DNA of 62,481 nucleotides, the filler included, from Anaerolineae bacterium (GTDB taxonomy: Bacteria; Chloroflexota; Anaerolineae; Epilineales; Epilineaceae): the NCBI GenBank assembly GCA_029262755.1. It is 6 parts of 6 records of this genome, joined end to end, with 100 filler letters (N's around TTAATTAATTAA, not from the genome) between each part and the next. Parts side by side here need not be neighbours in the genome. Positions count along the whole stretch, not along the records: positions 28,940 to 33,572 come from JAJCYU010000086.1; 5 more parts are not named here. The stretch is one strand, 5' to 3'. Shown in pieces: positions 29,701 to 32,700 of the stretch; positions within the stretch are counted from its first letter, which is position 1, and every line of letters starts with the position of its first letter. The position numbers are program-made.

Positions 29701-32700
29701 TTCGCGGGTGACGTCGCGCTGGCCGCGCTCCTCGGCGCGCTGCTGATCCAGATCGGCACGAACTTCGCCAACGATGTCCTCGACTTTCGCAAGGGCGCGG
29801 ACACGGCGGAGCGTCTCGGCCCGGTTCGTGTCACGCAAGCGGGCTTGCTCACGCCACGGGCTGTGACGATCGGCACGGCCGTCGCGTTTGCGCTGGCCTC
29901 CGTGGTCGGCATCTACATCGTGTTTCGCGCGGGCTGGCCAGGCGGAGCACCGATTCTGATCCTCGGTGTTGTTGCGATTCTCTCCGGCATCGCCTATACG
30001 GCCGGCCCCTACCCGTTGGCCTATGTGGGGTTAGGCGACTTGTTCGTGTTGATCTTCTTCGGCGTCGCGGCCGTGGCCGGCACGTACTACGCCCAAGTAG
30101 AAGCCCAGACCGTGGCCTTGGCCAGCACCATCGGTCTGAGCTGGATGCCACGGGCGATCGCACTCGGCATTTCCGTGGGCGCGTTGTCCATGGCCATCCT
30201 CAACGTCAACAACCTACGTGACCGCGTGGGCGACGCCGCCGTCGGCAAGCGCACGATGGCCGTCCGCCTAGGTGCGGACCGGACCCGCGTGTACTACGAA
30301 GCGCTGATCTTCCTGGCCTTCGCGATTCCCGTCGGCCTCGTCGCCTTCGGCTGGCTCGGGCCTGCCACGCTCATCGTGCTCGGCGCCGTACCGCTGGCCC
30401 TCGAACCGGCCCGCCACGTACGCACCGGACGGGAAGGCCGCGACCTGAACCCGGTTCTGGCCGCAACGGCCCGTCTTCAGATGGCCCACGCGGCATTGCT
30501 GGCCGTCGGGCTCCTGATCGACGCCTTCGCGATGTCGCGGATCGGTGGCTGAGCCCGACCGCGTGCGCGGTCCCGAGCACTGGCCTCCGCGCGTGCGCGT
30601 CACGGCCTTCGACCTACCCTTCGCCCGCCCCTTCACCACCGCCTCCGGTGTGTACACCCGGCGGCGAGGCTGGCTTGTGCGTATCGGCGATGCATCCTCG
30701 CCCCCGGTCGGCTACGGGGAGGCGGCGCCGCTACCGGGCCACGGAGGCGAACCCCTTGCGGACGTGCGCCCTGCCATCGCCGCCCTGGCACGGATTCTCG
30801 CCGCCGCACCGCCTCCTGGCGATGACTCGCGCGAAGCACTCACATCCCTCGCGGCCGAGCTGAGCGCCGCCGTCCCCCACGCACCGTGTGCCGTCGCGGC
30901 CGTCGTCACCGCGCTCGCCGATCGCGCGGCGCGCCGGAGCGGGCTGCCCCTCGCGCGTTGGCTGGACGCATCGGCGACGGCCGGTGTCGACGTGAACGCG
31001 ACGATCGGCGCGGTGCCGCCGGCGGAGGCCGCTGAACGTGCCCGCGCCGCTGTCGCGGCGGGCTTCCGCACCCTCAAGCTCAAGATGGGCGACGGACCCG
31101 TAGACATCGCGCGAGCCCGCGCCGTTCGCGCTGCCGTGGGCCCCACGGTGCGCCTACGCGGTGACGCGAACGGCGGGTGGAGCGAGGACAGCGCGCGCTG
31201 CAAGCTCGCCGCCCTTGCGCCGCTCGACCTCGCCTTCGTCGAGCAACCGACCGCCGCCTCCGACGTCGCGGCGCTCGCACGCCTGCATGCATGGTCGCCG
31301 GTCCCGATCGCAGCGGACGAAGCTCTCCTGCCGCCGCTCGGCCCGGGCGCGGAAGCGCTGCTCCAGACGCAGGCCGCGAGCGTGTGGGTCCTGAAGCCGG
31401 CCCTGCTCGGCGGGCCGTTCGTCGCGATGGACCTGGCCCAACGTGCGGCGGCGGCCGGCATCGAGGTCGTGATCACGACGGCGCTCGACGCAGCGGTCGG
31501 ACGGCGCATGGCGATGCATGTCGCGTCCGCGATTACAGGTCGCCGCCACGCGGACGGACTGGCCACGGCCGGGTTCCTGGCCGAAGATGTGGGTCCGGAC
31601 ACGCCGATAGAAGCGGGGCGGGTGCACGTCTTCGACCTTGGCCTTGCCGACGATGCCGATGGCTGCTTCCACGGCCTCGGCTCCGTACCGGCCGTGGCGA
31701 TCGATCGGTGGGAGGCACCATGAGCAAGCGCGCGCCGCAGCGGGACGTCGACATCCTGGATGCCACGCTCGGACCGGAGCAGCTGCTCGTCCTCTACGAC
31801 GGTACCTGAGGCGTGTGCTCCGACTCGGCTCGTCGGATGGCACGTTGGGATCGACGTGCACGGATCTGTTGGCTTCCATCGAAGAAGCCGGGCCTTGCCG
31901 AGGCGGCCGGCCTGAGCCGCGCACAGCTCGACGCCGCCTTGTGGGCCGTCACACCGGCCGGCCGGCAGCTTCGCGGCGCGGGCGGTGTCCTGGCCGCATT
32001 CGATGCCGCCGCCCTCGGCGATCGCCGGATCGCGCGGACGGTCTACGCCATTCCGGGCCTCCGCAGCGCCTTCGACGCCGGCTATGCGCTCTTCGCGCGC
32101 CACCGCGGGCGCTTCGGCGGAACGGCCGCATGCAGCCTTCGATCGCCGGCCCCCTTGGACGATTCATCCGTTGCCGAGCTCGCACGGCGGCGGGCTGTGG
32201 CGCGCGGAGAGCTCCACGTAGGCGAAGGAATCAGCGACGCGGATTCCGCCGATCGAGCGGACCTCGCGTGATGCGCGCGCGGATCGAGGCGGCGCGTGGA
32301 GGCCCCCCGTGAGCGCGCACGAGCACGGTGCGCATGACCGGGCGGACCGACCGTCCGATTGGATCGCGTTGCCGCTACCGGCCCGCGCAGTACAAAACCC
32401 CGAAGGCATCGCGCTCGTCACCCACGACACGACGTGGACGTGGGCAGCGCTCTCAGCAAAGGCGCACGCGCTCGCTGCTCGATTCGCGGCGCTCGGCGCC
32501 GCTCCGGAATCGGCCGTCGCGGCGCTGTTGCCCAACGGCGCGGCCTTCGTTGCGCTGGTCCACGCCTGCGCTGCGCGCAACGCGGTCTTCGTCCCGCTCA
32601 ACACGCGCCTGACGCCGGCCGAGCTGAACGGCCCGCTGACGGACACGGCCCCGGGTATCCTCGTCGCCGATCGACAATACGCGGACGTCGTGGACCTGCT

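Follow-up and report, generated by a model that had tools for sequence, protein, structure and literature searches.

The DCC1-like locus described here, which lies in a 62,481-nucleotide stretch of Anaerolineae bacterium DNA (the whole of which we call the window), raises the question of whether an in-frame UGA at 31807-31809 ends a short reading frame or encodes selenocysteine (Sec) within a longer one. Translation of the sequence revealed a frame from the ATG at 31720 to a terminal TGA at 32269-32271 that remains open for 153 codons beyond the UGA. When TGA was read as U, the redox motif DG-x-C-x-x-C became DGT-U-GV-C (D27, G28, T29, U30, G31, V32 and C33), and the read-through protein matched the Pfam DCC1-like family PF04134 over model positions 1-112 of 113 (residues 24-134; E 8.7e-14; 53.2 bits, the Pfam cut-off, or gathering score, being 27.8 bits). 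The D, the G and both C/U columns of DGxCxxC were invariant in a 101-sequence alignment. An earlier note on this DNA had proposed a single gene with UGA read-through at this motif's first cysteine, a proposal borne out by the 183-codon frame and the end-to-end Pfam match. Judging from sequence, we consider it very probable that the window gene is a real selenoprotein gene, with Sec insertion predicted at the following features:

31720..32271, + strand: coding sequence of the predicted Sec-containing DCC1-like oxidoreductase, 183 codons plus TGA stop, from the TGA=U translation and PF04134 match
31807..31809, + strand: in-frame UGA, codon 30, predicted selenocysteine U30 at the first Cys of DG-x-C-x-x-C, aligned with TGA or Cys codons of orthologues
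31816..31818, + strand: Cys33 (TGC), putative resolving partner of U30 (UGVC), invariant column C33 of the 101-sequence alignment A3, in which U is shown as C
31837..32271, + strand: database fragment P0002, Met40 to stop, 144 aa, without the redox motif

Gene callers and public databases read this UGA as an ordinary stop, the product then being a fragment from Met40 or from the GTG at 31813 and the 29 upstream codons being untranslated or a short peptide. Consistent with such a fragment, P0002 begins at Met40, ten codons 3' of the UGA; the post-TGA open reading frame alone scored 34 bits against PF04134 (model positions 9-112), still above the Pfam cut-off; and the relatives of locus L071 were mostly short, with 116 of the best 120 covering at most 81% of the query (100-118 aa). 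Nevertheless, in-frame conservation extends to the peptide encoded upstream of the UGA, which fits Pfam positions 1-8, and the fragment would be without the family's invariant DGxC, arguing against an ordinary stop, which we regard as very unlikely. The two L071 relatives examined, both NCBI records, are fragments beginning just after UGA codons; the sources name such post-UGA fragments 'DCC family' proteins, and the N-terminal part was found in none of the Sec-form records examined.

Comparison with other genomes of the order revealed the exchange of Sec and Cys codons expected of a selenoprotein family. The order scan gave 23 matching places in 21 of 35 genomes; TGA was present at 17 of those lying in other genomes. 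The motifs of the 20 full-length loci read UGVC (one, the window gene's own), UGFC (six), UGFU (two), UDFU (nine) and CGFC or CGLC (two), preceded by the context (L/I)(V/L/I)(Y/F)DGx. The codon for the first cysteine was thus TGA in 17 of the 19 full-length orthologues, 11 of which also had TGA at the second, and the remaining two encoded CxxC. A Sec/Cys pattern that included UxxU had earlier been described from 11 loci; it held in the 20 loci read here, and the order-scan counts were reproduced.

Outside the order, TGA was present at 14 of 130 DCC places in 401 genomes sampled from the phylum, and in 10 of 12 TGA-bearing DCC genes fetched from this sample it fell on a motif cysteine, two of these being CGFU. 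All four motif states, CxxC, UxxC, CxxU and UxxU, were therefore seen. A TGA-specific DNA pattern run over all species genomes matched at least 119 stretches; 91 of the 119 among the matches listed scored E<=1e-10 against a DCC profile, and the titles among these listed matches named Chloroflexota, Dormiibacterota, Acidobacteriota, Actinomycetota and Planctomycetota. The Sec form that the earlier note had placed in the order is supported there, and the scope given to it was too narrow, as the form extends to at least five phylum labels and hundreds of database clusters. That the stop coincides precisely with the codon for a catalytic Cys in more than 100 genes from several phyla argues further against ordinary termination. 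A sequencing error at the TGA was ruled out by its recurrence in more than 100 independent assemblies.

Full-length homologues with cysteine were found at 61-68% identity (P0012, P0086, P0112 and P0115). A metagenome search with a three-sequence alignment identified one locus, L212, and the same kind of search with a single fragment as query gave no match. L212, which is 67% identical to the window protein, keeps about 20 residues upstream of the UGA, also reads UGVC at the motif and likewise overlaps its upstream neighbor through ATGA, and the presence of this start-stop overlap in both genes again speaks against an ordinary stop. Protein-level conservation was present on both sides of the UGA, as judged from Pfam, the order loci and L212.

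The genome contains the means to decode UGA as Sec. Profile searches gave matches to SelA (507.7 bits), SelB (344.5 bits) and SelD (368 bits), the last with one in-frame TGA of its own, and a tRNA-Sec with anticodon tca was found at C193:5304-5397 (70.3 bits), in agreement with the full Sec machinery reported before. SelA exceeded the cut-off in 33 of the 35 genomes of the order, and genomes with a Cys-form DCC also use Sec. Because nearly the whole order, Cys-form genomes included, has SelA and SelB, there is no phyletic contrast between Sec machinery and Sec form. The UGA might also be decoded otherwise, by near-cognate Trp or Cys read-through or by Cys carried on tRNA-Sec. The completeness of the Sec machinery, the constraint on the RNA 3' of the UGA and the fact that the codon always takes the place of a redox Cys, a hallmark of Sec/Cys exchange, argue against such decoding, as does the use of TGA to end the DCC gene and its upstream neighbor, and we consider it extremely unlikely. 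Since TGA terminates both of these genes, genome-wide reassignment of TGA was ruled out.

Two hairpins follow the UGA of the window gene:

31819..31837, + strand: hairpin 1, best SECIS candidate of the window gene, 6-bp stem UCCGAC/GUCGGA, loop UCGGCUC, 15 nt after the UGA, -8.4 kcal/mol
31840..31859, + strand: hairpin 2, 8-bp stem, GGAU loop

Published rules for bacterial SECIS (bSECIS) elements call for a loop of 3-9 nt, a stem of at least 4 bp, a G in the first two loop positions, a spacing of 16-37 nt and an energy of -7.5 kcal/mol or lower. Hairpin 1 narrowly misses two of these rules, having no G in loop positions 1-2 and a spacing of 15 rather than at least 16. Hairpin 2 fits the rules when opened by one pair (7-bp stem with loop GGGAUC at -9.9 kcal/mol; its spacing of 37 is the largest that the rules allow), and 15% of shuffles equalled it. 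The position and GGC apex of hairpin 1 are common to L212 and locus L024, with two compensatory pairs relative to the latter. Over the 70 nt 3' of the UGA, the fold did not surpass that of shuffled sequences, 90 of 200 of which did equally well or better (z -0.06). SECIS support from the window gene's own hairpins is weak, and both stand as candidates; the lack of significance is a point in favor of an ordinary stop.

The same observations could indicate that the family is a true selenoprotein family and that the window copy is decaying, with a degenerated SECIS, as a pseudogene or with poor read-through. Hairpin 1 is without the two top pairs present in both L212 and L024, the fold is no better than shuffles, and the terminal branch of the gene is fairly long (0.51, compared to a tree median of 0.15). 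In contrast, the frame is open to its end and all invariant or nearly invariant columns of the 101-sequence alignment are kept (D27, G28, C33, Q55, G86, A89, Y122, A126 and R129). The gene also stands, with its start overlapping, in an intact operon-like row; the search of the genome (84% complete) gave no second DCC copy, and a review reports that some genuine SECIS elements of bacteria depart from the consensus. We consider decay of this copy decidedly unlikely.

Depending on the locus, 1-69% of shuffled sequences formed hairpins at least as good, such hairpins being common in GC-rich DNA. Because rule-based SECIS calls on single genes were not significant compared to shuffles, we relied on a comparison of Sec and Cys forms and on a synonymous-site test. 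Sec forms as a class have stronger SECIS-type hairpins than Cys forms. A hairpin obeying the bSECIS rules at -7.5 kcal/mol or lower followed the motif in 107 of 118 Sec forms compared to 21 of 42 Cys forms, and at -12 kcal/mol or lower in 84 of 118 compared to 10 of 42; among sequences of GC 0.62 or higher, the mean hairpin energy was -15.6 kcal/mol for Sec forms and -9.7 kcal/mol for Cys forms. The p-values of these comparisons overstate the difference because the sequences are related and come from partly different subfamilies.

In a clade of 23 genes, the choice among synonymous codons hardly varies over the first 20 or so codons beyond the UGA. In these gapless genes the relative synonymous-codon entropy was 0.21 at codons 6-15 after the UGA, 0.00 at codons 16-22 and 0.63 beyond (Mann-Whitney p 7.6e-7), and this freezing of synonymous sites 3' of the UGA in relatives is another point against an ordinary stop. 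The hairpin of this clade was paired in 96.1% of cells, compared to 28-60% with slid partners; covariation was thin, with one compensatory pair and 21-30 of 500 shuffles scoring as high. Between clades, the hairpin register shifts by 1-6 nt in a gapless 28-sequence DNA alignment (A1).

We therefore return to a single translated unit, expressed by UGA read-through with Sec insertion and carrying a U30/Cys33 redox pair, as an explanation of the whole locus in which we place high confidence. A ribosome would start at the ATG at 31720, coupled to the upstream gene by the ATGA overlap. A hairpin just 3' of the UGA at 31807-31809 would recruit SelB with Sec-tRNA(Sec), leading to insertion of selenocysteine, and translation would then run on to the TGA at 32269-32271. 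Placed at the N-terminus of helix 1, three positions ahead of Cys33, U30 would act as the attacking residue, and a U30-Cys33 selenenylsulfide may form in thiol-disulfide exchange; UxxU relatives would form a diselenide instead. The analysis shows the frame, the family match, the Sec machinery and, in relatives, the exchange of Sec and Cys and a constraint on the RNA 3' of the UGA; that this organism inserts Sec, which hairpin serves as the SECIS, what U30 and Cys33 do in catalysis and on what substrate are inferred.

The predicted structure is compatible with this scheme. In an AlphaFold2 model of the window protein (pLDDT 81.1), a strand at residues 22-26 is followed by a helix at residues 31-43, which would therefore place U30 at the helix N-cap. 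The fold is probably of the thioredoxin type: the top Foldseek and VIA rows were all thioredoxin-fold proteins (Trx, GST-N, Grx and DsbA), although weak (Foldseek E>=0.15; best VIA Z 4.8), and a thioredoxin-like fold is predicted for the DCC1-like family. Foldseek gave no match to the model at E<=1e-3, and phmmer of the single sequence against the PDB found no related chain, only a capsid protein at chance level (E 0.09).

The window protein resembles Cys-form DCC1-like (DUF393, YuxK; PF04134) proteins in its full-length profile match, in (hydrophobic)3-[FYW]-D-G-x-C-x-x-C at the N-terminus, which close Cys homologues read as FDGTCG[IPV]C, and in a predicted thioredoxin-type core with the motif at the start of helix 1. 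It differs in having UGA in place of the first Cys codon of the motif (relatives have it at the second or at both), and a constrained hairpin region follows. SelL of eukaryotes is a UxxU diselenide selenoprotein with a thioredoxin-like fold; it belongs to another family and domain of life, and the window protein has UxxC rather than UxxU. Among the UxxC and UxxU selenoproteins listed in Table 1 of the 2026 selenoprotein inventory (PMC13188914), namely Sec-thioredoxin, Sec-glutaredoxin, DsbA-like and Prx-like thiol:disulfide oxidoreductases, Sec likewise takes the place of the N-terminal Cys of CxxC, single and double Sec variants of the thioredoxin-fold members coexist and Cys homologues are common. 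These proteins belong to other Pfam families, and DCC also has CxxU forms.

The earlier note had stated that DCC/DUF393 is absent from two recent selenoprotein catalogues, and this held in the sources searched: the 119 families of that Table 1 include no PF04134, DCC or DUF393 entry, and none was present in the other selenoproteome papers and supplements searched, a set outside which Haft & Tolstoy 2025 and BSepDB Table S2 fall. Its further statement that NCBIfam has no model for this protein also held, with no family at E<=1 for the window protein and no relevant family, selenoprotein models included, for the 27 members tested. The family thus appears likely to be unlisted among selenoproteins. 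Public records lack the half of these proteins that carries the active site. Recognition of the family would repair hundreds of annotations, and it would add a bacterial selenoprotein family that is prominent under phylum labels in which the use of selenium has received little study. The natural series of CxxC, UxxC, CxxU and UxxU in one scaffold offers a tool for asking why Sec replaces Cys, and the Sec-DCC family provides a functional handle on bacterial DCC/DUF393.

A possible function is suggested by the neighboring genes, which form with DCC the row menA-menC-DCC-menE:

29584..30552, + strand: menA, 1,4-dihydroxy-2-naphthoate polyprenyltransferase (NF004751, 289.3 bits, cut-off 264)
30545..31723, + strand: enolase-superfamily gene with best matches to o-succinylbenzoate synthase (MenC-like), 123 bits, below curated cut-offs
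32309..33628, + strand: AMP-dependent ligase with best matches to o-succinylbenzoate-CoA ligase (MenE-like), 260 bits, below cut-off; the frame enters the N stretch

It is the TGA stop of the MenC-like gene that overlaps the DCC start. Further leads to a quinone link are a reported protein in which a DCC1-like domain is fused to an HTTM domain resembling vitamin K carboxylase, and a plant DCC protein located in plastoglobules. With low confidence, we suggest that DCC carries out a redox step linked to prenylquinone (menaquinone) metabolism. The broader proposal that Sec-DCC is a large unlisted selenoprotein family, mainly of soil and sediment phyla (Dormiibacterota, Chloroflexota, Acidobacteriota and Actinomycetota), with many UxxU diselenide members and a selenol redox step serving or driven by menaquinone, is speculative and, taken as a whole, rather unlikely. 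Also among the leads to the quinone link, a MenE-like ligase adjoined DCC in six of seven loci from the same family, and UbiD adjoined it in all three loci from another genus.

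From ATG 31720 to the stop TGA 32269-32271 (+ strand), translation gave one frame whose sole interruption is TGA 31807-31809, at codon 30. A standard ORF listing breaks the frame at this codon into two ORFs: one has a different frame-start and closes with ...LLVLYDGT at 31809, the other begins at GTG 31813 and has 152 codons. Read with TGA as selenocysteine (Sec, U), the 183-residue product matched the Pfam DCC1-like family PF04134 over model positions 1-112 of 113 (E 8.7e-14, 53.2 bits; cut-off 27.8 bits), compared with 34 bits over positions 9-112 for the post-TGA part by itself. 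The family motif DG-x-C-x-x-C appears as D27-G28-T29-U30-G31-V32-C33. Thus, both the proposal of an earlier note that two gene calls are one 183-codon gene read through an in-frame UGA and its placing of Sec at the first motif cysteine held. The start ATG shares bases with the TGA that ends the gene before it (ATGA at 31720-31723), the usual layout of coupled genes within one operon, and the gene is the sole DCC match in its 84%-complete genome assembly. We consider it highly probable that this gene encodes a genuine selenoprotein.

The full Sec machinery reported earlier for this genome was recovered, with matches to tRNA-Sec (70.3 bits, cut-off 47, anticodon tca), SelA (507.7 bits), SelB (344.5 bits) and SelD (368 bits). 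Because the SelD gene (G000:C109:4931-5866, locus L017) carries one in-frame TGA, SelD is probably itself a selenoprotein. Sec use is general across the order Epilineales, since 33 of the 35 genomes have a SelA match above cut-off and 32 a SelB match at E<=1e-40, 27 of the latter above cut-off. The Sec-using genomes include G015, one of the two with a Cys-form DCC, and therefore no phyletic contrast is usable.

A six-frame search found DCC matches at 23 places in 21 of the 35 genomes of the order. Three weak or partial places were left out of the motif counts (L038, with internal TAG and TAA and E 1e-4; L039, which ends at a contig edge; and L040, a second weak match), leaving 20 full-length loci: one UGVC (the window's own), six UGFC, two UGFU, nine UDFU and two CGFC or CGLC. 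Among the 19 orthologues of other genomes, the first Cys codon is TGA in 17, and in 11 of these 17 the second is TGA as well, bearing out the earlier description of the same UGA in relatives, some of them UxxU and two CxxC. The context (L/I)(V/L/I)(Y/F)DGx ahead of the Sec/Cys codon is kept in these orthologues, at an overall identity of 34-49%.

In the wider phylum Chloroflexota, a sample of 401 genomes scanned with PF04134 yielded 130 places, spread over 124 genomes; 14 of the places have an internal TGA, including the window's gene and one in an unpublished genome (G261) that enters the count by its table row alone. Ten of the 12 TGA-bearing loci that were read have the TGA at a motif Cys (UGFC, UGVC, two CGFU, two UGFU, three UGVU and UAFU). 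One of the others reads CDFC, its TGA being a likely stop, and one (L041, G363:C66) reads CNLC with the TGA elsewhere in frame (...RSPUSCVAC...), where a second type of Sec site, gene breakage and an error are all conceivable. The motifs read in the order and the phylum thus show that all four states, CxxC, UxxC, CxxU and UxxU, occur in the family.

One genome per prokaryote species was also scanned with a TGA-specific DNA pattern (three hydrophobic-type codons, then [FY]-D-G-x-TGA-G..-[FV-type]-TG[ACT]), which matched at least 119 stretches. Against a profile from a 27-sequence alignment, 91 of these scored E<=1e-10, five more, shortened by contig ends or a stop, fell between 1e-10 and 1e-5, and 23 among the matches listed look like chance. 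The phylum labels of the 63 good matches with record titles are depositors' bins, mis-binned contigs may be among them, and the genomes partly coincide with those of our own sets.

Good pattern matches by record title, among the matches listed
Chloroflexota-type: 28
Candidatus Dormiibacterota: 14
Acidobacteriota-type: 10
Actinomycetota-type (Rubrobacteraceae, Acidimicrobiia/Ilumatobacter, others): 8
Planctomycetota: 1
'uncultured bacterium': 2

Locus L067, titled 'Candidatus Acidoferrum' (Acidobacteriota-type), clustered tightly with Dormiibacterota sequences, suggesting recent transfer or a mis-binned contig and therefore caution with phylum counts by title.

A quick tree, built by maximum likelihood from 150 distinct sequences, leaves many forks open because it rests on only 117 columns. 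One clade holds 37 rows, mostly CxxC; the other holds 113 (SH-aLRT 99), with 59 UxxU, 42 UxxC, 11 CxxC and one CxxU. These proportions are not frequencies, because Sec forms were gathered with the TGA-specific pattern and Cys forms from a one-phylum sample. At least 12 Sec/Cys changes fall on the tree, and its starred branches alone force at least five changes of the CxxC label. A starred 8-row clade holds the window's gene together with five other UxxC forms and both CxxC forms found in its family.

Sec forms escape current annotation, as shown by their fragmentary records and the full-length records for Cys forms. The window's protein retrieved only three clusters, each a fragment of 119-144 aa from after the UGA. 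The full-length L071 protein (Dormiibacterota-type, 139 aa) retrieved 517 clusters at E<=1e-10. Among the best 120 of these 517, 116 covered at most 81% of the query with lengths of 100-118 aa, and two such NCBI records that were inspected ('DCC family protein') start at a Met three codons past the second UGA. The remaining four of the best 120 are full-length Cys forms (91-97% coverage; FDGTCGIC, FDGTCGPC and, twice, FDGTCGVC) at 61-68% identity, the classical pairing of Sec and Cys homologues.

For SECIS elements, the published bacterial consensus (PMC13188914) requires an apical loop of 3-9 nt with G in its first two positions, an upper stem no shorter than 4 bp, a UGA-to-loop spacing of 16-37 nt and an energy of <=-7.5 kcal/mol, and a subset of bacterial elements deviates from it (PMC13188914). 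A custom script applied to order and phylum loci found a compliant hairpin after 22 of 26 first-position and all 19 second-position UGAs. Dinucleotide shuffles equalled the real hairpins in 1-69% of trials, mostly 10-30%, and because shuffles match them this often in GC-rich DNA, single-gene calls mean little. Stronger evidence came from a comparison of Sec with Cys forms and from a synonymous-site test. The former set 118 Sec forms against 42 Cys forms (38 of 40 phylum-scan places, two without the motif being dropped, plus four others).

Hairpins after the motif in Sec and Cys forms
Compliant hairpin <=-7.5 kcal/mol: Sec 107/118, Cys 21/42
Compliant hairpin <=-12 kcal/mol: Sec 84/118, Cys 10/42
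Mean hairpin energy, GC>=0.62 subset: Sec -15.6 kcal/mol, Cys -9.7 kcal/mol

The Mann-Whitney p for energy in the GC>=0.62 subset, 5.6e-6, overstates the significance because the sequences are related; in a regression on GC about -6 kcal/mol remains for Sec status. The synonymous-site test measured codon entropy at conserved residues of 23 gapless genes of the UGV[UC]-TRxARW clade (contrast, Mann-Whitney p 7.6e-7).

Relative synonymous-codon entropy after the first UGA
Codons 6-15: 0.21 (6 conserved codons)
Codons 16-22: 0.00 (5 conserved codons)
Codons beyond 22: 0.63 (38 conserved codons)

Within codons 16-22, GCC GGC CGT GTG CTG are invariant wherever the consensus residue is retained in the 23 genes. 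The first hairpin of this clade has 96.1% of cells paired, versus 28-60% with slid partners, and a single compensatory pair; 21-30 of 500 shuffles reach an equal score. The RNA signal in this clade is nucleotide conservation, not covariation. Compensatory changes were read from the sequences of two other comparisons, G-C to A-U in L034 relative to the other loci of the order's third family and U-A to C-G in L052 relative to L048. UxxU genes have one hairpin 26-27 nt past the first UGA and 17-18 nt past the second, and therefore within range of both. In the clade of alignment A4 (L056-L166), a second hairpin, GGCCGGC[CGUGU]GCUGGCC, lies 51 nt past the first UGA (nt 47-65), outside the usual SECIS spacing, and spans the five invariant codons; CGUG(A/U/C) loops like this one also occur elsewhere, in different clades and at different distances. 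This second hairpin may belong to a two-hairpin SECIS or have another role.

SECIS evidence for the window's own gene is weak. The 70 nt from its UGA fold at -24.2 kcal/mol (z -0.06 versus shuffles) and contain two candidates:

31819-31837, + strand, hairpin 1: 6 bp, loop UCGGCUC, 15 nt past the UGA, -8.4 kcal/mol
31840-31859, + strand, hairpin 2: 8 bp, GGAU loop

The earlier note had seen hairpins form here; under the bacterial rules hairpin 2 complies only with its closing pair opened (spacing 37, -9.9; equalled by 15% of shuffles), and hairpin 1 narrowly misses two rules. In L212, the closest relative fetched (metagenome, 67% identity, UGVC), the hairpin 1 arms recur with one extra pair and a GGC apex closed by U-A (spacing 16 nt, -9.5). 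A different genus of the family supplied L024, whose 8-bp hairpin (-11.8) has arms that differ from those of hairpin 1 by two compensatory pairs. Hairpin 1 is favoured because both relatives share its position and GGC apex.

Full-text literature searches found no paper joining DUF393 with selenoprotein, none joining 'thiol-disulfide oxidoreductase DCC' or 'DCC family' with selenocysteine, and no occurrence of the identifier PF04134; judged by the titles and abstract openings of 25 of the 29 papers on DUF393, DCC1-like, 'thiol-disulfide oxidoreductase DCC' or YuxK, none concerns selenium. Neither PF04134 nor DCC is in Table 1 of a 2026 review (PMC13188914; 119 families or subfamilies with domain identifiers). 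The terms DCC, DUF393, YuxK and the enzyme name were absent from the main texts of a 2022 review (PMC9312934), the Sargasso Sea study (PMC1088965), Peng et al. 2016 (PMC5029168), the Olavius symbiont study (PMC1976440) and the Haft & Gwadz preprint, and from the main text and part of the supplement, perhaps exclusive of Table S2, of BSepDB (PMC13326102). They were likewise absent from the main text and four supplements of deep-Sep (PMC12013277), searched also for Sec-motif peptides, and DCC terms from those of the GOS study (PMC2398784), whose sequence files were searched for six DG-x-U-x motifs. NCBIfam release 20.0 gave no match to the window's protein and no relevant match among 27 family members, in line with the earlier note. 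The families of Haft & Tolstoy 2025 and of the journal version of Haft & Gwadz are presumably covered by NCBIfam models. The Sec-DCC family is very probably unlisted, with a listing under another name in further files possible, and it is likely that the gene belongs to a broad Sec-containing DCC branch outside current inventories and NCBI models. Such a branch bears on annotation and on how large the bacterial selenoproteome is and what its ecology is, and it offers a natural C/U series.

The gene lies on contig C86 in a menaquinone-type, one-strand run at 29584-33628 of menA, a MenC-like gene, the Sec-DCC gene and a MenE-like gene, the first two pairs overlapping or abutting; the MenE-like frame enters an N stretch (X in the translation near 33580). 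The assembly is 84% complete and has 428 contigs, of which the window joins two or more (C84 at 1-28839, filler at about 28840-28939, C86 from 28940); distances across the C84/C86 join are meaningless. Upstream menA matched NF004751 above cut-off (289 bits), and the upstream enolase-superfamily gene and downstream AMP-ligase gene best matched o-succinylbenzoate synthases and o-succinylbenzoate-CoA ligases, respectively, below curated cut-offs. By tblastn, DCC adjoins a MenE-like gene in six of seven same-family loci, one of the two Cys forms included (a contig end cuts the seventh), and in none of 13 loci of the order's other two families. UbiD-family decarboxylase and DNA photolyase genes flank the UDFU DCC gene in all three loci examined from one genus of the third family (L029, L032 and L036), and other loci have unrelated neighbours. 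Excerpts of two papers and a preprint place a plant DCC protein among listed plastoglobule proteins and describe a bacterial protein in which a DCC1-like domain is fused to an HTTM domain, a relative of vitamin-K-dependent carboxylase. Because the genomes are related and the hints scattered, we regard a prenylquinone link as a lead rather than a finding.

An AlphaFold2 model from the 101-sequence alignment (pLDDT 81.1, pTM 0.71) has residues 21-130 at >=90 and poor tails. Strand 22-26 precedes helix 31-43 in the model, which therefore places U30 at the helix N-cap and C33 one turn further, the N-cap being the position occupied by the CxxC of thioredoxin-fold enzymes. The best structural matches were weak (Foldseek, E 0.15; VIA-align, Z 4.8, none >=5), yet nearly every entry in the match lists is a thioredoxin, glutaredoxin, DsbA, PDI or GST-N domain; a thioredoxin-type fold is likely. 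The Sec selenolate would attack a substrate disulfide or other oxidant and Cys33 would resolve the intermediate as a selenenylsulfide; UxxU forms would cycle via a diselenide. The protein resembles the well-known thioredoxin-type oxidoreductases with Sec replacing a redox Cys, and the mechanism is not new. Many members share a third Cys in P-G-x-T/E-P-x-C about 105 residues past the motif (alignments A2 and A3), possibly an additional redox or metal site; the window's protein has C137 within GGTAACSL in its C-terminal part.
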